64,000 nucleotides of DNA from assembly GCA_041675145.1 (NCBI GenBank), contig JBAYUK010000002.1, positions 24,530-88,529 on the forward strand, given 5' to 3'. The notes beneath the pieces were generated by a model. The model saw only the letters and a program-made list of their open reading frames with translations, searched no databases and was not told where the DNA came from. Position numbers and translations under genes: made by a program. Position 1 is the first letter of the stretch. Each line of letters opens with the position of its first letter. Positions 24,500-62,973 of the stretch are shown one piece after another. Source of the stretch: Patescibacteria group bacterium (GTDB taxonomy: Bacteria; Patescibacteriota; JACPGU01).

Positions 24500-24515
24500 C
24501 AGATGGTCGTTACTG

Positions 24516-25535: not shown

Positions 25536-25539
25536 ATAA

Positions 25540-27855
25540 TTAAAGCTCTTTTACTTTTAGTCGCAGCGAGTTGCCCACGACCGAAACACTGGATAAGGCC
25601 ATCGCTAACCCGGCAAAAACCGGATTGAGCAGCCAGCCGAAGATAGGGTAGAACAAGCCAGCCGCGAGCGGGATTCCCACAATATTATAGAAAAATGCCC
25701 AAAATAAATTTTGCTTAATCCCGCGCATCGTCATTTTCGAAAGTCGAATAGCCTTCACAAGCTTCGTGATGTCCCCGTGAAGCAGAGTAATGCCAGCGGT
25801 TTCGATAGCTACGTCCGTGCCAGTCGCCATTGCGATCCCAACGTCCGCCTGCGCCAGAGCCGGTGCGTCATTGACCCCATCACCAGCCATCACCACGCGC
25901 GTGCCTTTGGCCTGCAACTCTTTAATTAACTTCAATTTATCCTCCGGCAAAACTTGGGCAAACACTTTTGTTATCCCTGCCTGATCCGCAATAAAACGAG
26001 CGGTGTTTTGATCGTCTCCGGTCATCATAATGACGGTCAGTCCCATTTGCTTTAGCCTTTCAACTGACTCCTTTGCTTCCGGCTTGATTTTATCGGCCAC
26101 CATTGCGACCCCCAAAACTTCTTTTTTAGTGGCAAGAATCACTGGAGTTTTACCCTGTTTGGTTTCTAGCTCGATCATTTTCTCGTCGATTTTTAACCCC
26201 AATTCTTTGATCAACCGGACATTGCCCACCCAATATTGAGTTTTCTCGATCACGCCTGTTGCCCCTCGGCCTTTGAGCATCTCATATTTAGCAACCGGCA
26301 GCGGATTAATCTTTTTTTCTTTCGCGTACCGCATCGTTGCCTGAGCCACCGGATGATCAGAATGACTGTCCAGCGATGCGATGAGAGCAATCAAAGCTTT
26401 TTCAGATAATTCAGATAATGAACTAATCGAAACCAATTCCGGTTTTCCTTGAGTAATAGTGCCGGTTTTATCCACCACCACAGCATTCACCCGATAGAGC
26501 TTTTCCAGTGTCGCCGCGTCTTTGATCAAAATCCCTTCCTGGGCTCCGCGTCCCACTCCAACAATAATCGCAGTCGGCGTGGCCAGCCCCAGAGCACACG
26601 GACAAGCGATAATAAGAATACCAACAAAAGAAGTCAGACCATATGAAAATGCCTGGGCAAGCCCGAGAGACCCGGTGCCGACAACCAGCCATAGTAAAAG
26701 AGTGCCCAAAGACAAAACGATCACGATCGGCACAAAAACCGCCGATATTGTATCTGCCAAGGCCTGAATCGGCGCTCGGCTGCCCTGAGCCTCCTCAACC
26801 ATTTTGATAATCTGTGCCAAAAAAGTGTCGGACCCAACCTTTGTCGCAGTAAAAGTAAAGCTCCCCGTCGTATTGATTGTACCCGCTACAACACTATCCC
26901 CAACATTTTTTTCAACTGGCATTGGCTCACCACTCACCATCGCTTCGTCCACAAAAGAGTTGCCTTTACTTACTACTCCGTCCACTGGAATACGAGACCC
27001 TGGTTTAACCACAATAATATCGCCTTTTACTACCTGCTGAATTGGTATTTCAATCTCTTTGTTGCCGCGAAACACTAAAGCTGTTTTTGCCTGTAAGTTG
27101 AGAAGTCTTTCAATAGCGTCACCAGTTTTTAGTTTTGAACTCGCTTCTAGATATTTTCCGAGAGTAATAAAAGCTACCACCACGATCGTAATATCATAAT
27201 AAGTACTATCAACATCCAAATAAGGACGTAGGGTATCCTCAAAAGCTGAGACAGCAAAACTATACAAATAGGCCGCCAGCGTTCCCATACCAATCAAGGT
27301 ATCCATATTAGCTTTGCCGTATCTTAAAAATCTATAGAAGCCAAGCAGGTACGGCTTACCAACTACAAACAGAGTATAGGTGGCAAATATCGGCAATAGA
27401 TGATGAAAAAAATCTTTTATAAAAATACTCATCCCAGCGACCAGCTGTAATTGAGCAAGAATATCCCAACCCATAACAAAAATACTAAAAACCGCCAGTG
27501 GCATTACTGAGATGACTTTAAGCTTCATTTCATTTAGCTCAATTGTTTTTTCCTGTTTAGTTTGGTTTAGACCCAAATGGGCAGCGTGTTCACTAGCTGT
27601 CATGCCCATTGCGCTAGCACTAGACCCAGCCAAGTTTTTCTCTACTGGAAGCTGAAAGGTATAACCCAAAGGCTCAATTGACTTTGAGAGTTGGTGTGGG
27701 CTGTTCTTATTTTCATCAAACACAACCTTTGCTTTTTCGGTACCATAGTTCACCTCTGCCGCGGTTACACCAGCTTGTTTTTTTAGAACACTCTCAATGG
27801 TCCGAGCACATGATGCACAGTGCATACCACGGATTGGATAAGTGTGTTTAGTCAT
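25540..27855 (-). CDS. copA: copper-translocating P1B-type ATPase
   Basis: HMA domain '[12 protein letters not shown]', CPC motif '[11 protein letters not shown]', 'DKTGTIT', 'MTGDDQNTA' and '[10 protein letters not shown]'. The start is set at MTKHT and overlaps the csoR stop by TAAcATG. Confidence 0.9.
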
Positions 27856-27856
27856 G

Positions 27857-28132
27857 TTATTTTCTTTTGAGCTTATAAACTTTAAGGATTTCTGTTTTGG
27901 CCTTTTCGATTCTACCTGCCTTGAGCTGATCAACGATACAACCACTGAGGTGATTTTCCAGCAACAAATCCTCAACATTGGAAAGTCCCTGCTTCACAGC
28001 CGAGGTCTGTGTAATGACATCGATACAGTATGCATCTTGTACTATCATATCTTGTAGCCCTCGCACCTGCCCCTCAATGATCTTGAGGCGCCGCACTAAT
28101 TTTTTCTTATTTTCCGATTTGATATATTTCAT
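27857..28132 (-). CDS. csoR: CsoR/RcnR-family metal-sensing repressor
   Basis: '[36 protein letters not shown]' is the CsoR signature with Cys/His ligands. Confidence 0.85.
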
Positions 28133-33923: not shown

Positions 33924-33947
33924 AACTCACCCTCGGTGAGTTTTTTA
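33924..33947. terminator. bidirectional terminator
   Basis: actcacc-ctc-ggtgagt followed by tttttt. Confidence 0.6.
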
Positions 33948-34637
33948 ATGTCCTTTAGCGAGTACTACTCCCCAAACCCTACCAGCGCCTGCTTTCTTGA
34001 GTGTCTTTGCGCACTCAGAAAGCGTTGCTCCTGTTGTAGTGATATCATCTACGAGTAGTATAGAGAGGCCACTAAGAGGGGCTGCTACCCATCCGTAGCT
34101 ATCTTTGACATTGTTAAGGCGTTCTCGTCTTGTAAGCTCAATTTGAGACCGTGTAGAACGCGTCTTTATAAGACTCTTCTCGTTCACTATAAGCTGTAGT
34201 TCTGTGGCTAATAGGCATGCAAGTAGTGAGGCTTGATTATATCCGCGTTCAAGCTCTTTCTCGTACGTCATAGGAACTGGGATTACTATCCAGTCTCCCT
34301 GAACCCCTATTTGACTTTTCGTTCTACTGATTCCTGCTACTAAAAAAGCCGCGATAAGATCAGCGGCAGAGGAACACCCTTCATACTTAAAGGTATGTAC
34401 GAGATCTTTTACTGCTCCGTTGTACTCGGTACAGATAGTAACACCGTCAAAGTCCCATAACGGTGAGCAACTTGCACACAGTTCACCGTAACGTGTTGGT
34501 CTGCGACACTCAGGACAATAGGGGGTAGTCACCACATCAACATAGGTAAGACATACGGAACACAAGTAGTCTCCCTCTTGATTACACCTCACACAGTGCT
34601 TGGGGAATACTATATCCCATACGGCATCAAGTAGCAT
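33945..34637 (-). CDS. comF: ComF family protein (phosphoribosyltransferase-like, zinc finger)
   Basis: N-terminal 'CxxC...CxxC' and C-terminal PRTase motif 'LLVDDITTTGATL'. Confidence 0.8.
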   Translation of the reverse strand: MLLDAVWDIVFPKHCVRCNQEGDYLCSVCLTYVDVVTTPYCPECRRPTRYGELCASCSPLWDFDGVTICTEYNGAVKDLVHTFKYEGCSSAADLIAAFLVAGISRTKSQIGVQGDWIVIPVPMTYEKELERGYNQASLLACLLATELQLIVNEKSLIKTRSTRSQIELTRRERLNNVKDSYGWVAAPLSGLSILLVDDITTTGATLSECAKTLKKAGAGRVWGVVLAKGH

Positions 34638-35191: not shown

Positions 35192-38100
35192 TTAACTGTC
35201 TATTGAGTAAATACCAACACGAATATTAATACCTGATTCATCTACTTTTGTGGTATCTGTTCCTTGGTAGAAGTATTGTAACACTTCTTTGTATGTTTTG
35301 CCTTGGTTAATGAGGTCTCGCGCCCCTCGACCCGGCAAGCCCACTCCATGCCCTAAGAGAGGAAGTCCAGCTGATCCAGGGTCAGATACCGACGTGAGCC
35401 ACGGGTAGTCTGACTGTTTAAAGTTCCATACTTCAGAGGCTGCACGAGTACGACCATCCGACTGTGTGTAGTACGGGGTGATTACAGGCTTACCGTTATA
35501 TGTAACAATCTCGCCGGCCGTAGCGTCATCTCCTCGACCAATATTTACTGCTCGTTTAGTAAAATTGTACCCCTGGAAGATCTGGTCATCTCCATTACCA
35601 TTGCGACTGTTTTTAAGAGTTAGGAAATCGTCTTTATGGCGGCCACCTAACCGGTAGTGATACAGTGCGTAACTGCGTTGGATAATACTCGAGACTTTAA
35701 GATACTCAGCAGGAAACGTGTCGATAGACTCGGATACTCCTTTTAAGTAGTCTTCAATAAAGAGCTCATCGATTGCCCAGAGTTTCTTATGTACGGTAGA
35801 GTAGCGAATCTCCATCACTCCCTTGAATGCATTGTCGTTAAGATTTGGGTTCCAGGTTGGACGATCACTGTAGAGTGGAAGCGTAAAAATGGTGGCATCG
35901 TGAGTTGGAACAAAACGTACATAGTTTGCGCTCGTATATGTTTTACCTTGAAGAACTGTTGTGTATGTACCAGCAGAGTAGGAGACGGCTGCGGTGTCAT
36001 CTGCTACGCCAGTAGCAATAGTAGCAAGCGTTAGTCCGTCTACTATTTTAAAGTCTCCCGATCCAGTAACCTGGATACTCTTCCCGTCACTTGGAATGGG
36101 AGCAGGTGACACTACCTGAGGAACAGTAGGAGTAATTGGCGTCTGGGCAACGCTCGTGCCAGTAGTGTTTTGTGCTCCAGGCTGAGCAGCTCCTGACGTG
36201 ACGATAAACTGCCAATAGATACCAATATCTTTAAACCATGCCACACCATCACGAACTAACGTAAAGTACTCTTTATATGTGCTTTGGGAATTTGGTGCGG
36301 TAACGGTAAATGTAAATCGGCCATTTTGTCCTGGCGCAACACTGTCCTGATCTAGTTGAACACGGTTGCTGTTAGTAAACTGCGAGATTCTGTCGCGTGG
36401 ATTAGCCGTTGCAAGTCTCACCGGAGTTGCTCCGCCTTTCTGCCATGTAGTTGAACCAGTGTTTTTTACTTCAATCCAAACTTGTGTGGTGCTGCCTGGT
36501 GTCATAGTCGGGAAGGCACTTTGCGCAACAAATGCAAAGTCGTCAAAGGATGGCTTGATAGTAATATCCCAGTACATACCATTTACTCCGAAACGATCAA
36601 TACCCTCAGCTACTAGTCTAAAGTACTCACGATACACGCCATCTTTCTGGTCTGTGTTGAGTGGGATAATGAAAGTTGCTATTTCACCGGGAGCAACCGA
36701 GTTTTCTAAAAATCCAAGACGGTTTGGTGAAAGCCAGGCGGAAGTGGCAAAGATACTACTACGATCATTTGCATTGGTAGTTGAAAGATGCACTTTGCTC
36801 TTGTCCCAGGTAGCAGTACCAGTGTTTTTAAACTTTACCGACATGTTGTATGCGAGTCCCTTTGAGGTAGTTGGGTAGGGACTCTGCTCAGTTAGCTGTG
36901 CGTCATACGAGACAGTACTGGGAGTTGGAGCACGGGGCGGTGTCGGCATTGGAGTAAGAGACTGACCAGATCCTGGTGTAGGGCTTGGTACTGGTGTGAG
37001 TGGAGCAGGAGTTGGGGTAGGAGTCGGCACAACTACAGGAGTTGGAGTCACCGGGGAAGGGGTAGTATCGGCAGTAACCGTAATACTAACAGTCACCTCG
37101 AGTGGGTTGCTCGATACCAGGTTTTGATCTGATTTTATAGAAAATTTCTCTTGGTATTTACCAGGGTTTGTCGGTGGTGTAAATAAAAAGGCAATGCGTC
37201 CATTTGAGCCAGTTGGTACAGTACTACCATCTAAGGTTCCTGCGTTGCTTTTTGTAACCCAGTCACCTGCCGTAAAGTAGGCGCTATCTGCCTGGTTAGT
37301 AGTCACTAGTCGAATGTTTTCTGATCCATTCCAACTCGTTGACCCTATGTTTTTTACATCTACCCAGTACGATACGGGTGCTGATCCAGCCTTGACTGTC
37401 TGCTCAGGACTCTGTCCTACAATCTTAGCGCCATAAGCAGGCGTGGTAACTGTGACCCCGAACTGTACATGAGTTCCAGAAAGTATGGTGCCGTCCACAT
37501 AGAAATCTCCCTGGACTTGTTGCGACATATTACCCAGCGGCGCGGTCACTGCGAGGTTAAGTGTCCGTATTTCTCCTGCCTCAACGCTAGCGCCAAAGTC
37601 CTCTAACCCTACCGAAAGTCCTGCAGTATCTGAAGATCTAAACTCTAGCTTATGAGCACCAGCAGATAACAACGCTATGTTTCCACTATTTTTTAAGCTG
37701 ACGCGAAGATTCTTAGTCTCTCCGCCATTCATTTGTAAACTACCCTCAGATGATAACACCTGCATAGCATACTGACGCGCAGGGTAGGCAGCCAGCTTCT
37801 CGGCAACCTTAATTCTCACCATCTCCATTCTGCTGTAGAGGGTATTACCCGGACAGCTAGTTGGATTTAAGTCTTGGTGACCAACAATAGTTGGGATTAT
37901 CTTGTTAATAAGCTTGACGGTACCGGCAGGATCAATACGGTTTTTATATGCCAAATAGGCAACGAGGTCAGTGATTGCCTCGAACTGAGACTGTTCAACA
38001 TTTCTTACATTATAGTCTCCAATAACTGAGATCCCGATCGTACCAGGATTATACCCTGAAGCGTGTCCTGCTATTACACTGTTACCTCCAGAGCGACCTT

Positions 38101-38896
38101 CATAAATACCACCATTAAGGTCGACGACATAGTTATACCCAATGTCTCCCCAACCGTAAGTGACTGCATGACCATAATAAATATTGCGTACCATATCCTT
38201 TGGATCCACTCCGGTGATACGACTATCATCCGCTGCGGTATGGTGAATCACTATGGCTTTTACTTCACTGTACTCTGGTTTCCAGGTCATGTAGCTTGAG
38301 TTTGCTCCCCAGGAAGATCTGGAAGTTATCTGCGGTCCAAGACCGGCAGTATCTGCAGAAATGCGCGCTGGCATATCTGACTTCGGGGGAGTAAAGAGAA
38401 CGAAGTGAATTGCAAATTCTTTTCCTATTTCAGAGGCATCAAAAACTACTTTATATTGGAACTCGTTACTAGAGACAGCGCTTACAGTCTCTCCGATAGC
38501 ACGACTATCTTGAATACCGCGGCCATCTGGTGTATCTGAGTCAATTCTCTCCATCTCACGCCATACAAGGCTGTTGCCTGACCTTACAAATACATGGGCA
38601 CCACTTTCACGCGTCCATGAACCAACCATTCCCGTAAAACTGTGGTGGGTAGTTACTTTATTTGAAGTATAGCGTGCTGCACTCACTACAAAGCTATTAT
38701 CCACACCACTACTATGTTCATCTATTGTTATTGCTTGAGATACGATGTTAGCACTGTCCTCTAGGACTATATGTTTACTGATTTCTGCATCACTTGATGC
38801 ATGCACGGGAAACACGAAAATCTGAGCGCTTATAAAAAGCGCTAAGGCAAGGTATGAAATGGTTTTTTGTGTAATATACATGTATCTATTATACAT
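35192..38896 (-). CDS. 1234-aa secreted cell-wall hydrolase: Amidase_2 (PGRP) + 4× ~110-aa repeat modules + P/T linker + SpoIID/LytB domain
   Basis: Amidase_2 region 'VIHHTAADD...GDIGYNYVVD...HQDLNPTSCPG'. Four repeats of the W-rich module. SpoIID-like C-terminus 'YLKGVSE...VITPYYTQSDGRTRAASEVW...YPWLTSVSDP'. Confidence 0.8.
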   Translation of the reverse strand: MYNRYMYITQKTISYLALALFISAQIFVFPVHASSDAEISKHIVLEDSANIVSQAITIDEHSSGVDNSFVVSAARYTSNKVTTHHSFTGMVGSWTRESGAHVFVRSGNSLVWREMERIDSDTPDGRGIQDSRAIGETVSAVSSNEFQYKVVFDASEIGKEFAIHFVLFTPPKSDMPARISADTAGLGPQITSRSSWGANSSYMTWKPEYSEVKAIVIHHTAADDSRITGVDPKDMVRNIYYGHAVTYGWGDIGYNYVVDLNGGIYEGRSGGNSVIAGHASGYNPGTIGISVIGDYNVRNVEQSQFEAITDLVAYLAYKNRIDPAGTVKLINKIIPTIVGHQDLNPTSCPGNTLYSRMEMVRIKVAEKLAAYPARQYAMQVLSSEGSLQMNGGETKNLRVSLKNSGNIALLSAGAHKLEFRSSDTAGLSVGLEDFGASVEAGEIRTLNLAVTAPLGNMSQQVQGDFYVDGTILSGTHVQFGVTVTTPAYGAKIVGQSPEQTVKAGSAPVSYWVDVKNIGSTSWNGSENIRLVTTNQADSAYFTAGDWVTKSNAGTLDGSTVPTGSNGRIAFLFTPPTNPGKYQEKFSIKSDQNLVSSNPLEVTVSITVTADTTPSPVTPTPVVVPTPTPTPAPLTPVPSPTPGSGQSLTPMPTPPRAPTPSTVSYDAQLTEQSPYPTTSKGLAYNMSVKFKNTGTATWDKSKVHLSTTNANDRSSIFATSAWLSPNRLGFLENSVAPGEIATFIIPLNTDQKDGVYREYFRLVAEGIDRFGVNGMYWDITIKPSFDDFAFVAQSAFPTMTPGSTTQVWIEVKNTGSTTWQKGGATPVRLATANPRDRISQFTNSNRVQLDQDSVAPGQNGRFTFTVTAPNSQSTYKEYFTLVRDGVAWFKDIGIYWQFIVTSGAAQPGAQNTTGTSVAQTPITPTVPQVVSPAPIPSDGKSIQVTGSGDFKIVDGLTLATIATGVADDTAAVSYSAGTYTTVLQGKTYTSANYVRFVPTHDATIFTLPLYSDRPTWNPNLNDNAFKGVMEIRYSTVHKKLWAIDELFIEDYLKGVSESIDTFPAEYLKVSSIIQRSYALYHYRLGGRHKDDFLTLKNSRNGNGDDQIFQGYNFTKRAVNIGRGDDATAGEIVTYNGKPVITPYYTQSDGRTRAASEVWNFKQSDYPWLTSVSDPGSAGLPLLGHGVGLPGRGARDLINQGKTYKEVLQYFYQGTDTTKVDESGINIRVGIYSIDS

Positions 38897-39061
38897 AGAT
38901 CAAGGGTGGTTGTTAATTGTTAATTGCCTATAAAAATATGTAGTACTTTTTATTAAAATATCCCTTTACTATATACACAACACCATACTATAATAACGAG
39001 TAATAGACACTATACCAATAAACACACAAACAGCCAGATTTCTGGCACAAAGGAGGGTACA

Positions 39062-39508
39062 ATGGCTCGCAGTGAAATTGAAAAATTCTTCTCAGACGAC
39101 GACAACTTCTTTTCTCGTCGCAATACCCAACTTCTTACTGGTGATGAGTGGGATACTGACACTACTGAACTCGAAGAAGGACAGCTCTCTATTGATATGA
39201 TCGAAACCAATAGCGACATCATCGTCAAAGCACCGATTGCTGGTGTAAAAAAAGACGATGTTGAAGTGGCAGTTACTGAAGATATGATTACTATCCGCGG
39301 TAAGCGTGAACATGAGTTTGAAAAGAATAACGATGACTTCCATATCCAGGAGTGTTACTGGGGTGCATTTTCTCGTTCTCAGTCTTTCCCTACTTCAGTT
39401 CTTGCAGATAAGGCAGAAGCGGTTCTCAAAGACGGTGTGTTAACTGTTCGTGTTCCAAAATCAAGCAAGGCACCAAAAGGAAAGTTGCTCAAAATAAAAA
39501 CAGACTAG
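39062..39508 (+). CDS. Hsp20/alpha-crystallin small heat-shock protein
   Basis: An AAGGAGGG ribosome-binding site. The alpha-crystallin domain includes 'DMIETNSDIIVKAPIAGVKKDDVEVAV...ITIRGKRE'. Confidence 0.85.
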   Translation: MARSEIEKFFSDDDNFFSRRNTQLLTGDEWDTDTTELEEGQLSIDMIETNSDIIVKAPIAGVKKDDVEVAVTEDMITIRGKREHEFEKNNDDFHIQECYWGAFSRSQSFPTSVLADKAEAVLKDGVLTVRVPKSSKAPKGKLLKIKTD

Positions 39509-39514
39509 TTTTTC

Positions 39515-40855
39515 ATGGTAGATAAAAAAGTCATTATTGGTGCTATTGGATTCCTCGTGATCATATTGATCGCGGGGTTTTTTGTGTTTCGTGGTAGCAA
39601 CACTCCTTCTCCAACACCAAACCCTACCGACAACACCAAGCCTACTCCAAAACCAAGTGACACCGACGAAGTTAACCTCACTATGTGGGGAGTATTTGAT
39701 GAGAACGCAGTTATGCAACCGTTAATAGATAAGTACCGAGAGAAACATTCGAATGTGAAGATTACTTATGTAAAAAAACAATACAGCGACTACGAGTCAC
39801 TCCTGGTTGATGCTATTGCGTCCGAGAAAGGACCAGACTTACTTGCAATCCATAATGACTGGTTACCAAAGCATGAAGCCAAACTTGCTCCTGCTCCAGA
39901 TACTATTATAAGTCTCGATCAGTTTAATAGTGAGTTTGTACCATCTGCCTACCAAGACTTTACTGACAACAACAAAATTTTTGCTCTTCCGTTATACACC
40001 GACAATCTCGCACTGTTTTATAACAAGCAACTACTTAACAAAGCAGAGATATATAACGCACCTACTACCTGGGATGAAGTAATTTCATACGCAAAGCTTA
40101 TGACTAAAACTGTTCCTGGAGATCCAACCAAGATAGCTCAAGCAGGTATTGCTATGGGAACTGCTAGTAACATTAACCGTCCAAGTGATATCTTGCTTGC
40201 TTTAATGTATCAGACCCAAACTCCCCTTATATCTGACGACAAGAGAACCTATAACTTCAACCAGTTCAGAAAAGGACCAGACGGTAATCCTGAATACCCA
40301 GGAACAGAGTCACTCTCTTTTTATACTGCCTTTGCTACCGCAGGCAAGCAGTCATATACTTGGGGCAAAGACCTCGACAACTCACTCACTGCCTTTGCAA
40401 ACGGCAAGGTTGGTATGATGATTGGCTACAACTATATGATCCCGCAACTCGAGAGACTCAATCCGAATATGTCTTATGGAATAGTGAAATTCCCACAGAT
40501 TAAACTCGCTCCTGAGCCTATTACTATCAGCAACTACTGGGGATGGGGAGTATCTCGTACTTCAGCAAACAAGGATGCTGCTTGGGAGTTTCTGCGCTAC
40601 CTATCAAATGACCAGGCACTTTCTAGCTACCTCTCTGCTACAGGTAGAATTAGCCCTAAGAAGATCCGTTCTGGAGGCTCTGTTTTTGAACAACAAGCTC
40701 AGTATGCGAAAACCATCTATAAAGGAAACGCTGAGCAATTTGATACCATATTCTCAGATATGATTAACGATGTCATTCAGTACAACCAGCCTCCTCAAAT
40801 CGCAATCGATACCGCGGCTCGCAAGGCTAATGAGATGATCAAAAAGTTCTACTAA
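39515..40855 (+). CDS. extracellular solute-binding protein (ABC family 1), orphan
   Basis: Transmembrane anchor and a P/T-rich linker, then the SBP_bac_1 fold with 'KGPDLLAIHNDWL' and 'LPLYTDNLALFYNK'. No permease or ATPase is adjacent. Confidence 0.75.
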   Translation: MVDKKVIIGAIGFLVIILIAGFFVFRGSNTPSPTPNPTDNTKPTPKPSDTDEVNLTMWGVFDENAVMQPLIDKYREKHSNVKITYVKKQYSDYESLLVDAIASEKGPDLLAIHNDWLPKHEAKLAPAPDTIISLDQFNSEFVPSAYQDFTDNNKIFALPLYTDNLALFYNKQLLNKAEIYNAPTTWDEVISYAKLMTKTVPGDPTKIAQAGIAMGTASNINRPSDILLALMYQTQTPLISDDKRTYNFNQFRKGPDGNPEYPGTESLSFYTAFATAGKQSYTWGKDLDNSLTAFANGKVGMMIGYNYMIPQLERLNPNMSYGIVKFPQIKLAPEPITISNYWGWGVSRTSANKDAAWEFLRYLSNDQALSSYLSATGRISPKKIRSGGSVFEQQAQYAKTIYKGNAEQFDTIFSDMINDVIQYNQPPQIAIDTAARKANEMIKKFY

Positions 40856-40879
40856 AAAAAGACCTCGTAACCAGTTGTT

Positions 40880-41302
40880 ATGAAAAAACTTCTTATATCC
40901 TTCCTACTTACCTCAACCCTCTTTGTGGGTAATTTTGCGTATGTCTCCCCGGTATTCGCAGTAGACCCAGCACCTACTGCACCAGCTCCGATACCAGCTC
41001 CTACCGACGGTTCGAAGCCAGAGAACTTGCAAGCAACCTCTTTTGCCCAAACAAGTGATCCTCAGGCACCAAAATTTGGAGAATTTATTCAGGTCTTTTA
41101 CAGATACCTTTCAATAATTACGCTCATAGCAGCCCTTCTCTCAGGCATCATTGGCTCATATATGTATATGACTAGCTCAGGCAACCCCGAAAAGATTGGA
41201 AAGGCACGGGAAATAATAGTGAATTCAATTATTGCTATAATCGTAGTAGCCTTTGCGTATGCATTTTTCAATATTCTTTCTCCTAATATAATAGGAAAAT
41301 GA
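40880..41302 (+). CDS. TrbC/VirB2-like pilin paralog 1
   Basis: Signal peptide followed by two transmembrane helices around 'MTSSGNPEKIGKAREIIVNSIIAIIVV'. Confidence 0.6.
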   Translation: MKKLLISFLLTSTLFVGNFAYVSPVFAVDPAPTAPAPIPAPTDGSKPENLQATSFAQTSDPQAPKFGEFIQVFYRYLSIITLIAALLSGIIGSYMYMTSSGNPEKIGKAREIIVNSIIAIIVVAFAYAFFNILSPNIIGK

Positions 41303-41862
41303 AAAAGAATTTTCTAAAAGTTTTTTTTATTTCTGCACTCTTCGCTATTTCCACAGTTACTGTGTTCTCTCTTCCTATGCATGTATATGCGGCTAATGAT
41401 GTGTATGAATACGTGGGACCTACTAAAATCTCTTGTAGTAGTACAGATCCATTTAGTGTTTTTAAGGAGCTTACTGGTGGAGCCACTCCTATTACCGAAG
41501 TGGATAAAGCCCTTAACGGCATTGCCTGTCTTGGGCTTAGTTTGGTTAACTTCTTGTCCGAAATGGCAGTACTGGTCGCTGCGATATATATCACGATATC
41601 TGGGATTAAGTACCAGACATCATCTGGAGACCCAAAGAAACAGCAGGCAGCAATTTCTGCCTTACAAGCAGCCCTTATAGGGTTTGCTCTCTCGTTGTCT
41701 TTTGTTGCTATCATCAACTACGCCCTAAACTTTATTGAGTTCGATACCTTAACAGGACAGTTTAAGAGTGTGAATGTGGAAGCCACAAAACCTGCCGATA
41801 CGCCTGCGCCAGCAGCACCGGGTACGCCTGATACACCAGCACCGCAACCAACCAGAAGCTAG
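41299..41862 (+). CDS. TrbC/VirB2-like pilin paralog 2 (P/A-rich tail)
   Basis: Same architecture as paralog 1, with 'KYQTSSGDPKKQQAAISALQAALIGFAL'. It overlaps paralog 1 by ATGA. Confidence 0.6.
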   Translation: MKKNFLKVFFISALFAISTVTVFSLPMHVYAANDVYEYVGPTKISCSSTDPFSVFKELTGGATPITEVDKALNGIACLGLSLVNFLSEMAVLVAAIYITISGIKYQTSSGDPKKQQAAISALQAALIGFALSLSFVAIINYALNFIEFDTLTGQFKSVNVEATKPADTPAPAAPGTPDTPAPQPTRS

Positions 41863-42060
41863 CTAGTATGTGTACGGTTCAGGTTTATTGCATTTATCCC
41901 CAGGTTTTGCCTTGCTATCCACAGAAATTTGGCTATAATGCACATAAGTGTGGATTTTGTCACCTTAATAAATTCGTTCATTCGTTTGTGTATCGCAATT
42001 TTTTTGAAAAATATAAATAATACAAAGAGGCTCACGTCTCGTAAATCCTCAGGAGGAATC

Positions 42061-42426
42061 ATGCTTAAAAATATAAAAAATCATTTAGCTGTTGTTGGTT
42101 CACTAGCAACTTTGACTGTTGGTAATGTGGCAGCAGCCGCAACAACAGAGATCGAGACTGGCCTTACTAAGACCGGAAACCTCGAGACTATTATTCAAAG
42201 TGTTATGAATACATTTATGGCTATAGTAGGCTTAGCTACAATTGTATACCTTATATACGGCGGATTTATGTACCTAACTTCAGGTGGAAACGCAGAGAAA
42301 GTCACTACAGCCAAGAACACCATTATTTATGCTATTGTTGGTATCATCATTATTGGTGCCGCATACGCAATTCGCGGATTTGTACTTGACCGCCTAAGTA
42401 TCACTATACCTACAGGGGGAATCTAA
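42061..42426 (+). CDS. TrbC/VirB2-like pilin paralog 3
   Basis: An AGGAGG ribosome-binding site. Contains 'MYLTSGGNAEKVTTAKNTIIYAIVGIIIIGAAYA'. I set the start at Met 42061 rather than the ORF-track 41929. Confidence 0.6.
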   Translation: MLKNIKNHLAVVGSLATLTVGNVAAAATTEIETGLTKTGNLETIIQSVMNTFMAIVGLATIVYLIYGGFMYLTSGGNAEKVTTAKNTIIYAIVGIIIIGAAYAIRGFVLDRLSITIPTGGI

Positions 42427-42449
42427 TTAATCCCTGTCGCTCTCATCAT

Positions 42450-42476
42450 AAAACCCCGCATGTGCGGGGTTTTATG
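42450..42476. terminator. bidirectional terminator
   Basis: aaaaccccgc-atgt-gcggggtttt. Confidence 0.7.
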
Positions 42477-42495
42477 ATACTTGTCGTTCTTTAGA

Positions 42496-50201: not shown

Positions 50202-52073
50202 TTAAAACCCGTTAGTTGAAAAGTGCCAGCAATCTGAACCTGAATCATCATTTACATACAGACCGTTTTGTTTGGATTGTAGTACGGGGTCGCAAGCCTT
50301 AAAGATATATACTCCATGTTTTTTTAATGTCTCTGCGACAACTTTATCACAGTTGTGGGAGTCGCAGCGTTTTCCTTTAGCTCCGTCTATATCTACTGCT
50401 TCACCTAGTTCATGTATTGAATATCCTGGTACCGCCGTTCTTCCTAAGTCACAAGTCATGGTTCTTTTTGAATAATCATCCTCCTCTTCTTTAGATAATT
50501 TAGGTATGGCCGGGCATCCACTCAAATTCCAGGCATCTCCCTGATCATTTTTAGTCCTAAAAGCAGCACGAATAACAAAACATCCCTTACACTCAGGGTC
50601 ATCCCAAGCTGATTTTAATTTAGCTAGAAAGTTGCTGTTGATGTATAGTTTATCTACTTCCTTTTTTGAACTCACCATGTTTGAGGGTACCGCGACTATG
50701 TTGTACTTTTTGCTGTCTAGGGAAGAGATAGTATATGTGAATTTTTTTGACTTACCATCTACTGTTCTAGTCTTAATATATATCTTCTGAGAACTATTGG
50801 GTGTAAAGTTTGCCCACACCCCGTTTGGGTTATACTTTACCCAGGTTTTGACGCTTGTTGGGTCCGCTAATTGAAAGTGATTACAATCCCCGTTGGGATA
50901 CCTAGCAAAAGCTGCGTGACATAAGTTAATTAGTCCATGTTTGGCCATAATCTCCTCTATCCTATCATTACACCCTCCGCTATAGTAGATTCTTGGGCTA
51001 CTACATCCTGGGAATCCGGCTATGTCTGCTGCGAGACCAGAATAGTGGCGGCTACCTTCGGTGTGACCACCGAGATCAGTTCCAGAAAAAACAGTTATAC
51101 TTAGGCCATCGGTAGCGTTAATTTCAGCAAAGGCTGCAGTTAGTGCGTCACCAAAAGTGGTATCAAAATATAACTCCAACTTTTTATTATTGTAAGTAGG
51201 TAGTTGACTGGTGGTGTAATGGATTCTTTGGCCCGAAGGTTTTAAGTAGGACCCACTAAATGGTTCAGTATTAGCTACGCGCTCACAACTACCTTCACCA
51301 GACATAAGGGCATCATATTTTGCTTTAATCCTGGCCCACCCCTCTTGTGCTTCTTTGAGTTGTTTTTGCTCATTTTTTCCTCCGTGACCATGATACCCGT
51401 CTATGTATGCTTTTTTAAAACTACCATCAAATCCATCTCTGCCTAGTTGGTAGTTAAGATAGGCAGCAGCAGCTAAAATGGATTTCTTAGCATCAAATCT
51501 TCCGTCGGGTTCGCTACTACTAGGCCCGTGTTTTACTCTAAACGCTTCTTTTTCTACTTCCGTTATATTGAGATTATCTACTGCCTCTACTTTGTATACC
51601 TTACCGAAGATGTCTTTAACGTTGTTGTCTGCGTTAGCTGTCTTAAATACAAATTGTCCCAGGCCTATTGCTCCACTAGAGGAGATAGCATCTTCCTTCC
51701 AGTTAGCAGACTCGTGTTCTATAAGCGCTATTAGTTGGGCTTCGTTAACACTAGGGAACTCTTCTACCGCTGCCTTAATGTCTGGCATGTACTTTGCGTA
51801 CACCTCTCCTGTTCCAGTACAACTCACTTGGCCTTCGCCTTCGCTGAGTGTCCCGAGTCTATCACATAAAGTTGAAAACTCACTCACTGTTCCGACAGTT
51901 CCCAGTGTTACGACATTGATGAGTTTTACAATTCCGCACGATTTTTGCGCAAGATTAGCGGCAGCACCAAGAAACACGATAGCCATTGTAAATAAAATAA
52001 GAGCTACCGCGATCGGTATGAGAATTACAATAAATCCTTTTTGGTTGTTTTTTCTAGTATTGAATATGGACAT
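50202..52073 (-). CDS. membrane-anchored multi-domain peptidoglycan hydrolase (SLT lytic transglycosylase + two LAS/M15-like peptidase motifs)
   Basis: N-terminal transmembrane helix. SLT motif 'LIEHES...AIGLGQF'. Two SxHxxGxAxD motifs: 'SRHYSGLAADIAG' and 'SIHELGEAVDIDG'. Its start overlaps the stop of the giant ORF by 20 nt. Confidence 0.7.
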   Translation of the reverse strand: MSIFNTRKNNQKGFIVILIPIAVALILFTMAIVFLGAAANLAQKSCGIVKLINVVTLGTVGTVSEFSTLCDRLGTLSEGEGQVSCTGTGEVYAKYMPDIKAAVEEFPSVNEAQLIALIEHESANWKEDAISSSGAIGLGQFVFKTANADNNVKDIFGKVYKVEAVDNLNITEVEKEAFRVKHGPSSSEPDGRFDAKKSILAAAAYLNYQLGRDGFDGSFKKAYIDGYHGHGGKNEQKQLKEAQEGWARIKAKYDALMSGEGSCERVANTEPFSGSYLKPSGQRIHYTTSQLPTYNNKKLELYFDTTFGDALTAAFAEINATDGLSITVFSGTDLGGHTEGSRHYSGLAADIAGFPGCSSPRIYYSGGCNDRIEEIMAKHGLINLCHAAFARYPNGDCNHFQLADPTSVKTWVKYNPNGVWANFTPNSSQKIYIKTRTVDGKSKKFTYTISSLDSKKYNIVAVPSNMVSSKKEVDKLYINSNFLAKLKSAWDDPECKGCFVIRAAFRTKNDQGDAWNLSGCPAIPKLSKEEEDDYSKRTMTCDLGRTAVPGYSIHELGEAVDIDGAKGKRCDSHNCDKVVAETLKKHGVYIFKACDPVLQSKQNGLYVNDDSGSDCWHFSTNGF

Positions 52074-55000
52074 AGTCTTTCATATAGTCACTTTGATGTA
52101 CTCCTTTTACGCCACGAGAAAACGGTAGGAATCCATGTACGAGAGTAGCTAAGTCTGCTTGTGGATCTTTACTCCCGTTATCTTGAACCCCGTTAAAGAA
52201 GTCCACATCCTCTTGTCTAAAGGTTCCTATCACAGGAGGTATAAGGGATGTATTTCTTGTTCTTTCTCCAACTCGTAACATATCGTTTATGAGTAGTCTC
52301 GTATTGGCTTTTGCCCACTGCTCATACATGGCGTCATTTTCCTTACAGAACATCTTCCAGTTGATTGCATCGATATTAGACATGAGCGGGTTTTCTTCAT
52401 TGATGAGTGGAACATCCTGGAAGCAGGTCATTTGGTTCTCGATCTTAGAATAGCCAAAGACGATGGTATATACCGCAAATGCAATACTGATAGGGTTTGG
52501 CGCTATAACGGCTGAGATGACCGCTGAAAGAGACCCAGGGGGTAGTCCTAGTTGCGCATCAGCCTTAGCAAGTTGCTTAGAAAAGACCAGTAAAGCAACT
52601 GAGGCTATATCTACCTTGGTTACTTGCTTTCCTTGAGCAATCTTTTGCCCTAGATCGTAGACGGTTTGCGTAGAACCTTGTGGGAGTCCGAGCTGTTTAT
52701 CTACTACCGCACCGATTTGAGCACGAGCAAAGTCACCAGCAAAGTTAGTAAACTCCTTGCTCTTAAGCTTACTTGTGTTTCCTGTGGCAGCGTAGTATAT
52801 ATACTGTGCAGTTCCCGAAGGCAGGGTGATGTTTGTGTTTTTACTTAAGTTTTTTTGCAGGATGCCATTAAGCTTGGTATCAAAGTAGCCAAACATTGCA
52901 TCGCGTCCTGCGTTATCAAGCTTATTATTTTGGAACCTGTCTGGATCAGAACTAGTAGCAAGTTTTTCTATTACACCTACAGCGACTGAGCCTAGAACGC
53001 TCTTTTCTTTTACTTCTTGGATGAACGCTATATCTTGTACTGCGTAGGTTAATGCATACGACAATAACATGTTATTGCGTTCTCGATCAGTACCGCTAAA
53101 CATAATCTTACTGAAGTTTGGTGGCGGAGGAGGGAGGTTGTTTTTGATGGCTGCGGTAGCAAGCTGTGCATCCAGATATTTAAACTGTAAGTTGCGACGA
53201 GAGTTTGGAATGAGTTTATTTTCGTTTTCTTGAATAGATGAATCTAGACTATCTAACAAGTCTTTGTTATCTACATTATCTTTTTCGTTAAGGCGACTGC
53301 GAACCCCTTTCTCAAGACACTGATCTTGAGTTGCTTCATCTAAACATGTTGCCGTACCACCAAAGAGCTTTGCGGCTTGTGCTTGCTCGCGAACAAATTG
53401 GTCGGTAGTTTCTTGACGTATTTTAAGGCGAGAGGTAGTGCTTCCATAGGTGGCATCCATAATCTCTTGGTAGCCAATTTGGAAACCTGGAGGAAGAATT
53501 TGGTACTCTACTTTTTGTTGCCCGTTTTCTTGTTTTTTAATTTGCGTTGCGTTGACTTGGTTTACGCCAAAAGCAATACCAATAATAGAGAGGATACGAG
53601 TATCTCCTTTAAGTAACGCTCCTAGGTCTGCTTCTGGAACACTTACTCCTTGAAGTCTAGTGATTGTTTTTCCATTTTCTTCTACCTTTATTTCTGTAGC
53701 ATTACGAATTGTATCTCCAAGTATTTTCTTTGTTACAAAATCAAAACAACTCGATCTTTTTTGAACACGACCAGTCTCACCAAAAGTAAGATCATACTCT
53801 TTGTATTTCCTTAGATCTTCATTGTATTGTTCAATTCTCTTTTGGTGCTCAGAAACAGCCACGGTACTTAATAGCTGTTCTGAAGTAAGCTCTGGAACCG
53901 GTGCTGGTTTTTTAGCAACTGGAATTGCAGCAACAGTACCTGCACTACATGAGCTAGATGCTTGGAGTGCATTTGCGTGTATGGGGTAGTCGTACCCTTC
54001 GTCGGTTGCATCGCTCTTATTTAAGCCCTGTGCAAACGGTGCAGAAAAGCCTGGAATCGAGTACTGCATAAGAAGGGCAAGATCATTATAGAGACTTGCT
54101 TGTGGGTTGTTGGCGCTTAACTTTGGCCCCAGGATTGCCTCAGATGCTTCACGAATTCCCTGACCCATAAGGATAGATTTTGCAAGGTCTCGGTTCATAA
54201 GGATGTTTTTCATCGTACCTGGATTCCAGCCTATTTGGTCGTCGATATCGTAGTGGCCGATATTTTTAATTGCGTTAAGTAATCCTACCTGAGTGCTTGG
54301 ATCATTTAATCTGTTCTTGTCTTGGAGAAGAGAAGTAAAGTTCACATAGCCGTTGATGATTTTTCCGATCTTACCCTGGCCTTCTTCATCCGAAACAAAG
54401 TACGCGGCCATCTGTTCAGGAGTTAGTTCGTCAAACTGATGCGTACGCACAAGTTCTATGTACTGGGCTATGGTTATTTGGCCTGTTAAAAGTTTTTTAG
54501 TTGGATGTGATTGATCAGCGATACTACCTATCTTAAGCCTTGCGTCTATAGTATCTGCTCGAGCGTTATTTGAAGATCCAAAGATTGGTTCGTTCCAGTA
54601 GCTCTGATCGTTAAATGTTCCGCTCTCGACAAAGACAGCCTGAGAAATAAACGAGCGAATATCGTTGTCGTTCATGCTAGCGTCGGGAGTGTTTATTTTA
54701 AAAGATTTTGTAAACTGACGAACACCGTTACTTTGCATAACACTACTGATGCTTTGGTTAGGGTTAAATGATCCAGGCTTAAGACCAAGTACTTCCTCTA
54801 TTTGTTTTTGAGCAAAGTTTTTTGTGAATTCTCCTTTAATTGGGATTTTAATACCAAGCTGAGATTGGAAGCCGAGTAGTATTCCAAGTTCTGCAGGAGG
54901 TATCAGAGCAATGAGTGCTTTTTGTTGGAGAGTATCGCTATCTCGTAGGCCGTCAACGACGTCATTACAATCAAGGTTATGTTTAGCGAGAATGTTTTGT

Positions 55001-58000
55001 ATTGTTTTAACTTCTGTTTTGTTGTTAACACGAATAGTGTCTTCACTTAGTTTAATGCCTGAAATTTGTTTACAAACATTATTCTCTAGGTGATTCTTTA
55101 GGTTGCTAGCCGATGCAAGTTTCTTGTAGTCGTCGATGGTAATACTATTCTTCAATAATTTTTCAGTGGTGTGAGTAGGTAAATGTAGTATTGTATCTAC
55201 TCCATTCTCTCCAGACATAGCAGTAGTGAGTTCGGTAAACTCTGAAAAATTAGCATTAGATAAGCCGTACAGACTGAGTGGATCTGAGTAGTTGTTGGCC
55301 GCTGTTCTGTTTGGCTGCATATGGAATAGCGCAATAACTATTTGTTCTGCAACGCGCATATCTGCCCTAGCAAACTTTGTGCCATAGTCGTAGCTTGCAC
55401 TAAATCCAAAGAGTGGCAAGAAACGATCCTCAGCATCAAGTCTTGTTTGAATTCCAGCATATGGGTTTTCGCTATTACTTTGCGGAAGTCCAAGGTTTCT
55501 TCCGAGGGTATTTGCAAGCTCATCAAGTGAGTTACCGCTAAACCAAAAGGCAGGAAGAGTACTAGATGGGTCTAAAATCCTTTCCGCTAGCTGTCTTCCA
55601 TTATCTTGTACTTGGTCTGGGGTATCAGAAGGTTTTCCAGGCATAAGGAGCCCGACTGTTGCGTTGTATTCATTTGGAGTTATTGTTTGCGCAAAGAGTT
55701 TTGCAGTAAGTCCTGTTAAGCCAGATCTAACTTTCGGCGATTCACCAATGGCTCTAATTAACTTCTCATCAACCGCGTTAGTTATGGCACTATCTTTTAC
55801 AGGACCAGTAATAGTGAAACGACTTCTTAAGATATCTGTTTTGGTGGTTTGGATAGCAGTAGGAGTTGTCTGACCTAGGAGACGCAAAATGTTTTTAGCA
55901 ACACCGGTAAGATTTTCTCCATCAAACCAGCCAGCAGGAAGTGAGTCTTGTCCTGATAGATCACGCACCATAGTGTCTATTTGTGCTTTATAGGGGTTTG
56001 TGGGGCTGTAGAGGGCTTGTTCTATGCTTATCTGCCCCATATGTGAGCGAGCATTGTCTGAGACGGCTATACTGCCTGCTATACCTACGATATGTGCAAG
56101 CGTATCCTTGCCATTTGCTGCTAGTATATTTTCTAGACAACTTTCGTTTACCCCAGCTTCGTTGGTTATCTGACACTCTAAACTTGGGTTGTCTACCATT
56201 GCCTTGATGGTTCCTAGTGGCATTACTAGACCCTTATCTAGTTTTTCAGCACCAATCTTTATTGCAATAGGGAGTAGGTTTCCATTTAAGGTATCGATGA
56301 TATCTATTCCAGATAATTTGTAGCCTGAAACAGTCACGCCTAAGCTACCGGATATTTCGTTAGCAGATTTATGCTTTACTACTAGCGACCCTATCCGCTT
56401 TGAAAATTCTTGCGGTGAAATATCTTGCGAGAAAAGTTGCGCAGATAGTCCGTTGATGTCGTTTAGTTGTTCTACTGATATACCAAAACTTTTTATTATT
56501 TTATTATCCATTGCAGCGGCAGGTGCATAATCTCGAGGGGAGAGTGGGAGTGTACTATACCGTTCATCTAGAAGGTCTAGCTTTGTGGTGTATTCTGTGC
56601 CAAAGGCGTAGTTCTTTTCGTCGTACCCGAATGCATTTAACATTCTGTTTTCCGATTCTATACCAGCCGCAAACGCAGCAGAAAAATCTCCGTTCGGTAA
56701 ATTAAAACGCGTGATATTCTTACTACGAATATCATCTAGTGTATTTCCGTCAAACCAGTTTTTACCAAGTTTACCGTTTGGATCAAAAACTTTTTCTATA
56801 TACTTTTGTCCTATACTAATTAACTGCTTTTCAGTCGCTGTTCCTTTGATACTTGTTTTGTTTGGATCGTTATTGTTTGAGTTATTTGGACCAAGATTCA
56901 GCGCTTCCATAGTGAGCTCTAAGACGCCTGCAGGAATATCAAATTTTTCTTCAAGTTTCTTCATTCCCATAGCGAGTGCAACTTTCTCGATGGTCTCTTC
57001 ATTAGACTCATTGTTTGAAAGAAGTAAGCTTTGTATGAGGGGATCAGTACATATCTTTTTATCTTTTATGAGTTTATTTTTTTGCGCAATAAGTCCTGCG
57101 TTTGCAATGTCATTAACTTTAAGTTTTAGATTGTCCTCGCGTTTACTAATTGCTTTCATTTGTTCAGCTATCTTTTTCTTGTCTACAGCAACTGGGTTTC
57201 CGTTGCTGTCGTAACTAGCCGATTCATAAGCAACTTCTTTTTCAGCTTCAATATTTGCAAGTTGGTCTTGCAGTCTGTTTAGTTCTTGTGCGCGACGGTC
57301 ATCTGAGAGTTTTGCTATTTGTCCGGTGTCTGCTTTGATCTGTCCTATGTTAGTAAATACGTTAGTGCCATTATTGTTTATAAAAATGTCCGAGAAAGAG
57401 TCCTCGGGTACGAGGAATAAATCGGTCATACTTTTTTCAGTAATAAAAGTCCACTGGTCGATGGTGGCGATTTCAATAGTGAGCTGTTGCTTACTCACTC
57501 GGATAGATTCTTCTACTCTTTTTATATTTTGGTTAAGTAATTGTACTTGTCCGCTGTTTCCGCTTTTAGCACTCATGGTTAATTCATCAAGACTCTTCTT
57601 GTATAGTTCTAGTTCGGCTTCAAGTGCTTTAATCGTGTCTTTCAGTCTGGTAATTTCATTTTCATCTTTATTTAGGATGCGTTCACGAGTACGAATCTTG
57701 AATGTATCTAGTGCTTGGTAGTTTCCGTCGACATCAACCAAGCTAAATGCAAAACCGAGGTCATCAATTGGTGCTTCGTGAAACTCTAACCATGAACGCA
57801 CTACAAGACGGTCTTCGTCGTTGCTTGCCATTTTTTTAGTGAGTTCATCAAGGCCGATATTCTTCCAGGCACCTGTATAGTCTTGAATAATAAAAAGTTG
57901 ATCAACACTACCGTCTGGAATATCTAATATTTCATCTTGCTGGTTTGCATCATCGTTAGTGTTGGTGTAGGTACCGTTAGCGTTTAAAACAGCGCTCTTA

Positions 58001-60003: not shown

Positions 60004-60171
60004 GTATGTTTGTGTGTGGAGTATTAAATACTATAGTAGAGGACATTTACAGGAATGAGAAGTACTTTTTTGTTATTTATTTTGCTAATCCAACACAAGA
60101 GTTTCGTTAAATAGATTGACAGTGATATCTAATAGTTATAATGAGGTTATAATAGAAAGATGGAAGCACGG

Positions 60172-60205: not shown

Positions 60206-60229
60206 TAATTTGATTATAACCTTTATAGG

Positions 60230-62948: not shown

Positions 62949-62973
62949 TAGTAATACTTATCTATGAAAAACA

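Follow-up and report, generated by a model that had tools for sequence, protein, structure and literature searches.

Tandem series of divergent pilin genes are a described feature of the type IV secretion systems (T4SSs) of Patescibacteria. When the Pfam families PF18895 (T4SS_pilin) and PF04956 (TrbC/VirB2) were applied to 3,035 Patescibacteria genomes, 441 'VirB2 arrays' of 2–11 pilin genes, defined as at least two PF18895/PF04956 genes in tandem or one non-pilin gene apart, were reported in 383 assemblies, especially of Microgenomatia and Saccharimonadia, with an average within-array identity of 25% (Quinonero-Coronel et al. 2025, PMC12102498). In the same study, the T4SS genes were often located near dnaA and dnaN, relaxases were mostly absent, and the VirB4 clade was related to the Gram-positive MPF-FATA class (PMC12102498). 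S. epibionticum requires a pilin series, as well as the T4SS, to grow as an epibiont (Wang et al. 2023, PMC10633639; reviewed in PMC12857230), and metatranscriptomes of methanogen-parasitising Patescibacteria place T4SS pilins among the genes of unknown function with the highest expression (PMC10936435). The role of the system has been called "completely unknown", with effector export and the uptake of DNA or nutrients being floated (PMC11665869). The locus described here lies in a 64,000-bp stretch, hereafter the window, of a Patescibacteria group bacterium (assembly GCA_041675145.1, contig JBAYUK010000002.1, positions 24,530–88,529 of the forward strand), and consists of a gene for a family-1 solute-binding protein (SBP) followed by three pilin genes, pilA, pilB and pilC (Table 1). 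This four-gene observation at 39515–42426 is real and far beyond chance. The three consecutive pilin genes (40880–42426) form a VirB2 array as defined above and are a further example of the published feature, while the lead position of the SBP in the operon and the conserved set of A, B and C subunits represent a modestly novel variant of it. The three genes probably encode old, differentiated VirB2-like pilins of a relaxase-less Patescibacteria T4SS of Gram-positive (MPF-FATA-derived) type, with the SBP acting in the same process.

All three pilins score above the gathering threshold of PF18895 (26.6 bits), with 32.4 bits for pilA, 27.9 bits for pilB and 48.6 bits for pilC, in agreement with the initial annotation, which had taken them for TrbC/VirB2-like pilin paralogs encoded by co-directional genes, the first two overlapping, each with a signal peptide and a two-helix hairpin. 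The shared direction and the ATGA overlap, in which the pilB start codon ATG meets the pilA stop codon, are borne out by the open reading frame (ORF) calls. AxA-type signal peptides are found in pilA, pilB and pilC (VFA↓V, VYA↓A and AAA↓T, respectively), and each is followed by two hydrophobic helices with a short loop as judged from hydropathy. The AlphaFold2 (AF2) model of pilC, built from 61 sequences, contains helices at residues 40–72 and 78–112, with a per-residue confidence (pLDDT) of 83–97 across residues 41–110. The loop reads TSSGNPEK in pilA, TSSGDPKK in pilB and TSGGNAEK in pilC, so the motif 'TSSG(D/N)PEK' proposed earlier describes pilA and is only approximate for the other two. 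An alternative start of pilC at TTG 41929, which opens the longest ORF, was rejected, as ATG 42061 has AGGAGG 6 nt upstream and matches the lengths of the orthologues. A word-based search with pilC alone retrieved 6 homologues and a profile of 20 pilins retrieved 84, all of which carry PF18895, while about 20 also carry a precomputed PF04956 match and some are named 'VirB2 component (pilin)' in their source annotation.

Outside the window, this pilin family is found beside T4SS genes. Two loci reached via pilin homologues (L055 and L056) place six pilins beside, and divergent from, genes for VirB4, a TraC-like protein, PrgI, one further protein and TrbL_3, and fusions of the pilin with the VirB6-like TrbL_3 exist (e.g. 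P0192). The function of the window pilins would thus be of VirB2 type, that is, VirB4-dependent polymerisation into an extracellular pilus, as suggested by the genomic association with VirB4 and by the published essentiality. Several observations weigh against this assignment. Only pilC comes close to the PF04956 threshold of 27.9 bits, which it narrowly misses (26.5 bits, E 8e-6), while pilA and pilB have no match to PF04956. The pilC model has no significant neighbour in the PDB (best Foldseek E 2, with an archaeal conjugation pilus in tenth place at E 3.5), albeit in a fold search that cannot discriminate helical hairpins. Pilin profiles (A1 and A5) searched against PDB sequences match no solved pilin, and for PF18895 proteins there is no experiment or structure demonstrating pilus formation. 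The hairpin also serves as an N- or C-terminal module of proteins of 500–600 amino acids (aa), including fusions to SLT domains, so that it could simply be a membrane anchor, a role that is plausible for some members of the family. In addition, pilC is named as the candidate major subunit on the basis of its size, its ribosome-binding site and a promoter-like site only.

Given that the helical hairpin is a low-information fold and is attached to large enzymes such as SLT proteins, the three proteins might be unrelated small membrane proteins, such as holins, or generic hairpin anchors. This is highly unlikely, as all three exceed the PF18895 threshold with pilC near that of TrbC, the family is genomically tied to the VirB4 clusters of L055 and L056, and S. 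epibionticum depends on both its pilin array and its T4SS (PMC10633639). Nor did a PHROG scan at E 0.1 give a phage or holin-family match for any of the three, so the pilin reading survives the holin test that had been proposed for it.

Compared with the TrbC/VirB2 pilins of diderms (Agrobacterium VirB2 and RP4 TrbC; PF04956), the window pilins share the signal peptide, the two hydrophobic helices, the short polar loop, the small size and the association with a VirB4 ATPase. They differ in that only pilC approaches the family threshold, that the window host is monoderm and that no counterpart of cyclisation, VirB5 or the outer-membrane core is apparent, and plasmid-borne pilins show no similarity to pilC, for which a tblastn search of 72,556 plasmids gave no match. 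The pilin-like protein of Mycoplasma integrative and conjugative elements (ICEs), Mbov_0395 / MMCAP2_0565 (NF045849), is closer, since pilC reaches its cutoff (41.0 against 40 bits) and both hosts have a single membrane; moreover, the TrsD-like protein and VirB4 of the window genome match NF045975, far below its cutoff of 590. However, pilA and pilB remain below the NF045849 cutoff, the window lacks an ICE context, and it encodes an array, whereas the Mycoplasma pilin is single-copy.

The hairpin cores of pilA, pilB and pilC are 20–28% identical to one another, whereas pilins in the same position in related loci are closer. The window A, B and C pilins share 54, 41 and 43% identity with the first, second and third pilins of L003, and 42, 36 and 44% with those of L012. 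In L004, the first hairpin shares 35% identity with pilA and the third pilin 41% with pilC, which is also 39% identical to the third pilin of L002. The paralogs are thus old, being 20–28% identical among themselves and 35–54% identical to their positional orthologues. The A-B-C gene order is kept in these relatives, although L002 (11349–12227) and L004 (11371–12006) have a single double-hairpin gene in which the A and B types are fused, while L003, like the window, keeps them as two genes overlapping at ATGA. In a VirB2-like topology, the N-terminal extension of pilA and the C-terminal tail of pilB would be extracellular. The conserved order, these tails and the minimal pilC point to fixed, distinct roles for the three subunits. 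Tandem arrays of several divergent VirB2 genes are also present in Bartonella and Anaplasma (cited in PMC12102498), where they are thought to serve antigenic or host-range variation, whereas each window paralog has a positional orthologue in relatives. Fixed roles of the A, B and C subunits do not fit the adaptation to host strains suggested on this analogy in PMC12102498.

A T4SS core operon was located in the same genome, on the opposite side of dnaA from the pilins. Locus L052, found via a GGDEF protein (window 62118–62948), is identical to window positions 52118–64000 (0 mismatches over 11,883 bp) and extends beyond the window end; coordinates above 64000 are window-equivalent positions read from L052, and about 84 kb of the genome is covered in total. 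The operon opens with a VirB6/TrbL-like gene which runs off the window end, and continues with genes for PrgI/VirB3, a TrsD/VirB4-N-like protein, VirB4 and a polytopic membrane protein (Table 1). The 1141-aa VirB6/TrbL-like protein contains a signal peptide, an ectodomain of about 390 residues, at least five transmembrane (TM) helices and a long hydrophilic tail; its TM region aligns with a TrbL_3 protein from another Patescibacteria T4SS cluster (E 9e-8), and a TrbL_3 protein of 1134 aa occupies the equivalent position in L056. Monoderm-type VirB4, TrsD and PrgI/VirB3 are thus encoded in one genome with the pilins, which makes this a Patescibacteria-type T4SS; the pilins are separated from the 5' end of the core operon by 20.6 kb and from virB4 by 25.5 kb. 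The search beyond the window advised in the initial annotation therefore yielded both VirB4 and VirB6. Of the statement that VirB4, VirB6 and VirD4 are missing from the window, the parts on VirB4 and VirD4 hold, while the first 928 bp of the VirB6/TrbL-like gene do lie inside it. A pilin-core hidden Markov model (HMM) at relaxed thresholds found no other pilin-domain ORF in about 72 kb (the window and about 8.3 kb of L052). The locus agrees with the published Patescibacteria arrays in its PF18895 pilins (with PF04956 in some members), in its tandem divergent paralogs (20–28% identity here, 25% on average in the published set), in its position near dnaA, in the lack of a relaxase and in the partner set of VirB4, TrsD, PrgI and VirB6-like protein (PMC10633639, PMC12102498). 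It differs in that the array lies outside the virB4 cluster, 21–25 kb away, and is SBP-led, with an Hsp20 gene before the SBP.

The three genes were initially interpreted as a lineage-specific surface-filament or adhesion module. As a stand-alone module that needs no T4SS, this has some appeal, since VirB4, VirD4 and relaxase are missing from the window, VirB4 is missing within 10 kb from nine Pfam-annotated contexts and from the scanned large Walker-A ORFs of other SBP-pilin loci, and the Pro-rich tails of pilA and pilB are typical of surface proteins. It is improbable nonetheless, since a complete Patescibacteria-type T4SS core lies 21–25 kb away in the same genome, the window pilins are the only pilin genes found around that core, and the family is elsewhere adjacent or fused to T4SS proteins (L055, L056, P0192). 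The lineage-specific part of the claim does not survive either, as pilin arrays near dnaA have been published phylum-wide (PMC12102498, PMC10633639).

The other half of that interpretation, that the locus is not a canonical conjugation system, is upheld. No relaxase, coupling protein (VirD4/TcpA) or integrase was found in the approximately 84 kb (ORFs of at least 110 aa in the window and a 10-kb extension), which thus holds no conjugative T4SS with relaxase and coupling protein, and the surroundings are housekeeping genes at oriC. Downstream of the operon, rpsT and the genes for an ATP-grasp protein, yidC, yidD and rnpA lie on the opposite strand, followed by dnaA and dnaN on the plus strand, which places the locus at the replication origin. 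The VirB4 is a member of the CD1110 family, which is typical of ICEs in Gram-positive bacteria, and pilC matches the Mycoplasma ICE family, which would be expected if the genes were ordinary conjugative pilins of an integrated mobile element. Such an origin is very improbable and was rejected: the genes sit among rpsT, yidC, rnpA, dnaA and dnaN, the same synteny is found where the SBPs are only about 50% identical, the GC content of the operon is unremarkable and the same as in its surroundings, relaxase, coupling protein and integrase are lacking, and the plasmid search with pilC found nothing.

The gene in front of the pilins encodes an ordinary-looking family-1 SBP, matching SBP_bac_1 at E 3e-32 (113 bits against a threshold of 26). 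It is tethered to the membrane by an N-terminal TM helix (residues 6–24 by hydropathy), which a Pro/Thr linker follows to about residue 50, and has no lipobox. The AF2 model (pLDDT 88, global confidence pTM 0.82), which shows the bilobed type-II SBP fold, is confident except for the TM helix and the linker. Its best Foldseek matches are family-1 SBPs that bind oligosaccharides (E 1e-24 to 1e-27), led by 5ci5 (E 2e-27) and including GacH, binders of cyclo/maltodextrin and of sophoro-, manno- and cello-oligosaccharides, and MalE; the sequence search agrees with this placement. Many Trp, Tyr, Asp and Asn positions are invariant across homologues at 34–54% identity, and these residues would fit a conserved ligand of sugar type.

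The SBP is linked to pilin arrays well beyond this genome. A homologue search returned 243 proteins at E 1e-10 or better, and among the matches listed, every top homologue with an organism label is from Patescibacteria, including CPR3, Microgenomates, Doudnabacteria, Liptonbacteria, Yanofskybacteria, Torokbacteria and Paceibacterota. T4SS_pilin genes follow the SBP in 8/8 annotated contexts of these homologues (100% down to 34% identity), and in 9/9 when one context reached via a pilin is included, while the flanks fall into at least five different arrangements, such as amidase, Hsp20 ... rpsT; ComM, NTP-transferase; gyrA directly upstream; gyrA, methyltransferase ... Sua5; and gyrA ... methyltransferase ... 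VanW. The scan was widened to GTDB species representatives with the SBP alignment (43 loci), and a pilin-hairpin HMM was run over all reading frames of the SBP loci, the tally being made over 46 non-redundant loci. The contig ends right after the SBP in five of the 46, which are uninformative. Among the remaining 41, a pilin-domain ORF lies directly downstream on the same strand in 39, its frame opening between -75 and +246 bp from the SBP stop; the array is adjacent but divergent in one (L044), and one GTPase gene separates SBP and array in another (L054). All 41 informative loci, each from a different species and together from several candidate phyla, therefore have a neighbouring pilin array, of one to eight hairpin domains; loci of related species are not fully independent, though five or more flanking contexts and several named candidate phyla are represented in the set. 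The synteny comparison with related genomes proposed at the outset thus confirms both the SBP-pilin pairing and the A-B-C order.

The SBP was earlier described as an orphan, and this holds in so far as no transporter partner is nearby. Neither a permease pair nor an ATPase was found within 10 kb in the nine Pfam-annotated contexts or in the 64-kb window, where none of the ORFs of 110 aa or more had a Pfam match to an ATP-binding cassette (ABC) permease, ABC ATPase, VirB4, VirD4 or relaxase, and no ORF with a Walker A motif and the ABC signature LSGGQ is present in about 40 SBP loci. A CUT1-type ABC importer, with the SBP encoded together with a permease pair and ATPase, is thus missing from the regions searched. 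The nine largest uncharacterised Walker-A ORFs near the SBP loci were identified by the scan as FtsH, FtsK, SMC and PilB-type ATPases, none being VirB4, and other large ones resemble FtsH, ComM and DnaA in size and in the position of the motif. The array-adjacent loci show that the SBP is no accidental orphan: many Patescibacteria lineages have kept it in an operon with a pilin array. Arrays appear to come in two architectures, either T4SS-embedded, as in L055 and L056, or SBP-led and away from virB4, as in the window; the reverse statistic (arrays with and without SBP) comprises three look-ups, one SBP-linked and two T4SS-embedded. The link between SBP and pilin array was not found in the part of the literature covered (PMC12102498 and PMC10633639 among others), nor were the SBP or its Pfam identifiers in the portions of the supplements of PMC12102498 and PMC10936435 that were consulted. 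The same SBP subfamily is welded to arrays in genomes labelled Microgenomates, Doudnabacteria, Yanofskybacteria, Portnoybacteria, Liptonbacteria, Torokbacteria and Moranbacteria, never with transporter genes nearby, and its linkage, together with the conserved A, B and C pilin types, offers concrete handles on the function of the essential Patescibacteria T4SS.

For the SBP, a serious though somewhat doubtful rival is that it is the receptor of an ordinary sugar ABC importer encoded elsewhere, sharing an operon with the pilins by envelope co-regulation only. SBPs encoded apart from their permeases are known. The protein itself looks like an intact oligosaccharide SBP: its fold is MalE-like, and many of its Trp and Tyr residues are invariant, as is typical of sugar pockets. 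A permease and ATPase matching it might be encoded at another site in the genome, and the T4SS-embedded arrays of L055 and L056 work without an SBP, so that it is not a universal component; these points all count against a part for the SBP in the T4SS process. The array adjacency, by contrast, is kept in every informative locus while everything else is reshuffled into at least five flanking contexts, no ABC ATPase signature occurs in the roughly 40 loci, and a linkage so persistent at 31–55% protein identity would normally be taken as functional coupling. If the SBP were merely co-regulated, the finding would shrink to an annotation rule, by which the SBP marks the pilin operon.

SBPs without a permease of their own that serve a T4SS-related process as ligand sensors are exemplified by ChvE, a sugar SBP signalling to VirA in Agrobacterium, and PrgZ, the pheromone-binding SBP of pCF10 (SBP family 5). 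Both act in regulation and, unlike the window SBP, are not encoded in a pilin operon; the window SBP has no adjacent sensor kinase or regulator. The SBP and the pili most likely serve a common process, and the chance that the SBP is mechanistically tied to the pilus system is about even. Tentatively, and with low confidence, it may be a protein for glycan reception, sensing or capture rather than the receptor of an adjacent ABC importer. A bolder and rather unlikely proposal makes the SBP a hitherto unrecognised, dedicated part of the T4SS and pilus apparatus, an oligosaccharide receptor docking to the pilus or the VirB6-like channel, with Hsp20 as a third conserved accessory. In that case the SBP might recognise a glycan on the host surface or pass sugars or wall fragments from the host on to the machine, Hsp20 could be a holdase for the hydrophobic pilin pool or a membrane stabiliser, and the T4SS would be at least partly a nutrient-acquisition device and not an exporter.

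In VirB2/VirB4 systems, prepilins are exported by Sec and cleaved, and the membrane pool of hairpins is extracted and polymerised in a manner dependent on VirB4 and VirB6. By analogy, the probable VirB2-like pilins of the window would be exported by Sec, cut by signal peptidase I after the AxA site, and kept in the membrane as hairpins whose short, net-basic loop (Y-x-T-S-S/G-G-N/D-x-E/K-K) faces the cytoplasm. The VirB4 and VirB6-like machine may then extract and polymerise them into a host-contacting pilus or conduit, with pilC as the putative main subunit and pilA and pilB, which bear Pro-rich tails, as accessory ones. Neighbouring wall hydrolases could open the peptidoglycan, and the SBP might bind or sense glycans where the host is contacted, or capture sugars or wall fragments released there. 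The family membership and topology of the pilins, the A-B-C order, the T4SS core and the SBP-array linkage are observed; the initial annotation is thus confirmed as an observation and partly supported in its interpretation.

Table 1. Features of the SBP-pilin locus, the T4SS core operon and other genes of the window (window coordinates; positions above 64000 are window-equivalent)
Feature	Position	Strand	Description
SBP gene	39515–40855	+	446 aa; first gene of the SBP-led pilin operon
pilA	40880–41302	+	140 aa; Pro/Ala-rich N-terminal extension on mature VirB2-like pilin
pilB	41299–41862	+	187 aa; VirB2-like pilin with Pro/Thr-rich C-terminal tail
pilC	42061–42426	+	121 aa; shortest and best-scoring VirB2-like pilin; own AGGAGG ribosome-binding site
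Hsp20 small heat-shock gene	39062–39508	+	PF00011 E 6e-18; 6 bp upstream of SBP
Promoter-like site TTTACT-18-TATAAT	38965–38994	+	Upstream of Hsp20; consensus scan, 10/12 matches; pattern match only
Promoter-like site TTGCTA-16-TATAAT	41912–41939	+	In the 198-bp gap before pilC; pattern match only
GC-rich hairpin terminator	42445–42478		Between convergent pilC and rpsT; 15-pair stem, 7 GC pairs; pattern match only
VirB6/TrbL-like gene	63073–66498	+	1141 aa; first 928 bp (63073–64000) inside window
PrgI/VirB3	After VirB6/TrbL-like gene in L052		PF12666 E 7e-11
TrsD/VirB4-N-like protein	Core operon, L052		241 aa; NF045975 E 8e-8
VirB4	Core operon, L052		690 aa; P-loop_TraG E 1e-27; NF045971 'VirB4-like, CD1110 family' 383.6 bits against cutoff 325, E 2e-114
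Polytopic membrane protein	After VirB4 in L052		278 aa
TM-anchored cell-wall hydrolase	50202–52073	-	PF01464 SLT E 1.5e-8; TM helix 15–33; two LAS/M15-like motifs
2649-aa membrane protein	52054–60003	-	TM helices 51–69 and about 2493–2516
1234-aa surface protein	35192–38896	-	Divergent from the Hsp20-SBP-pilin operon
Copper-handling cluster	24098–27978	-	Cupredoxin-like protein; DsbD_2 + HMA protein; CopA-type P-type ATPase
ComF-like protein	33945–34637	-	Double zinc ribbon and phosphoribosyltransferase
ComEC	8901–10424
MazF/PemK-type toxin gene	4214–4648	-	Overlaps galT-like gene
Bro-N domain protein	23163–24005	+

The site upstream of Hsp20 is a candidate promoter of a transcript of Hsp20, SBP, pilA and pilB, on pattern matching in a region where promoter-like sites are no more numerous than in shuffled sequence. 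Hsp20 itself recurs beside pilin arrays of both architectures. It lies directly upstream of the SBP in the window and in L002–L004, is convergent right after the array in L034 (14980–15480), L055 (10478–10966) and L056 (11409–11894), and a homologue is found within 10 kb in 21/46 SBP loci. For a gene present in one or two copies in a genome of less than 1 Mb, this recurrence looks non-random. Near SBP-led arrays, a single kind of secretion ATPase was encountered, a PilB-type (T2SSE) ATPase of type IV pilus assembly that is encoded about 8 kb 3' of the array in L012 (19399–21054) and L034 (19366–21066), probably by coincidence.

The TM-anchored cell-wall hydrolase contains two LAS/M15-like motifs read from the sequence, SRHYSGLAADI and YSIHELGEAVDID, and is a candidate VirB1-like partner of the T4SS. 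In other lineages, an SLT protein lies between the SBP and the pilins (L005 and L007). Orthology of the window hydrolase to these proteins was rejected, as phmmer gave no match at 1e-5, and the VirB1-like assignment is thus only positional. Fusions in which the pilin hairpin stands N-terminal to SLT lytic-transglycosylase domains, or C-terminal in proteins of about 590 aa, occur in L005 (11481–13193) and L007 (11367–12974 and 13666–15441), and in loci of the Paceibacteria type the SBP gene is followed immediately by the pilin-SLT fusion. The gene for the 2649-aa membrane protein, which has no Pfam or NCBIfam match, overlaps that of the SLT hydrolase by 20 bp, and the two are probably co-transcribed. 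Homologues of this protein follow dnaN-DciA in L003 and L004. The pair, lying between the pilin operon and the T4SS core, may belong to the pilin/T4SS apparatus.

The 1234-aa surface protein, a wall hydrolase found in the same position in L002–L004, contains an Amidase_2 domain (MurNAc-L-Ala amidase), three Ig-like N_BRCA1_IG stretches, Pro/Thr linkers and a SpoIID domain. The ComF-like protein is encoded near Hsp20 and the pilin array in the lineage of the window and likewise in the unrelated T4SS-embedded locus L056 (12076–12789), and the window also encodes a ComEC. The copper-handling cluster coincides with the one part of the window that is rich in GC (0.516 against about 0.43) and may have been horizontally acquired; a CopA/DsbD_2 pair resembling it is present near the pilin array in L006. 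The MazF/PemK-type toxin gene and the gene for the Bro-N domain protein are possible remnants of mobile or defence elements. In the closest sequenced relative, L002, a reverse transcriptase gene (RVT_1) and a bAvd-like gene (16145–17563), which may constitute a diversity-generating retroelement, lie between rpmH and dnaA, where the window has nothing.

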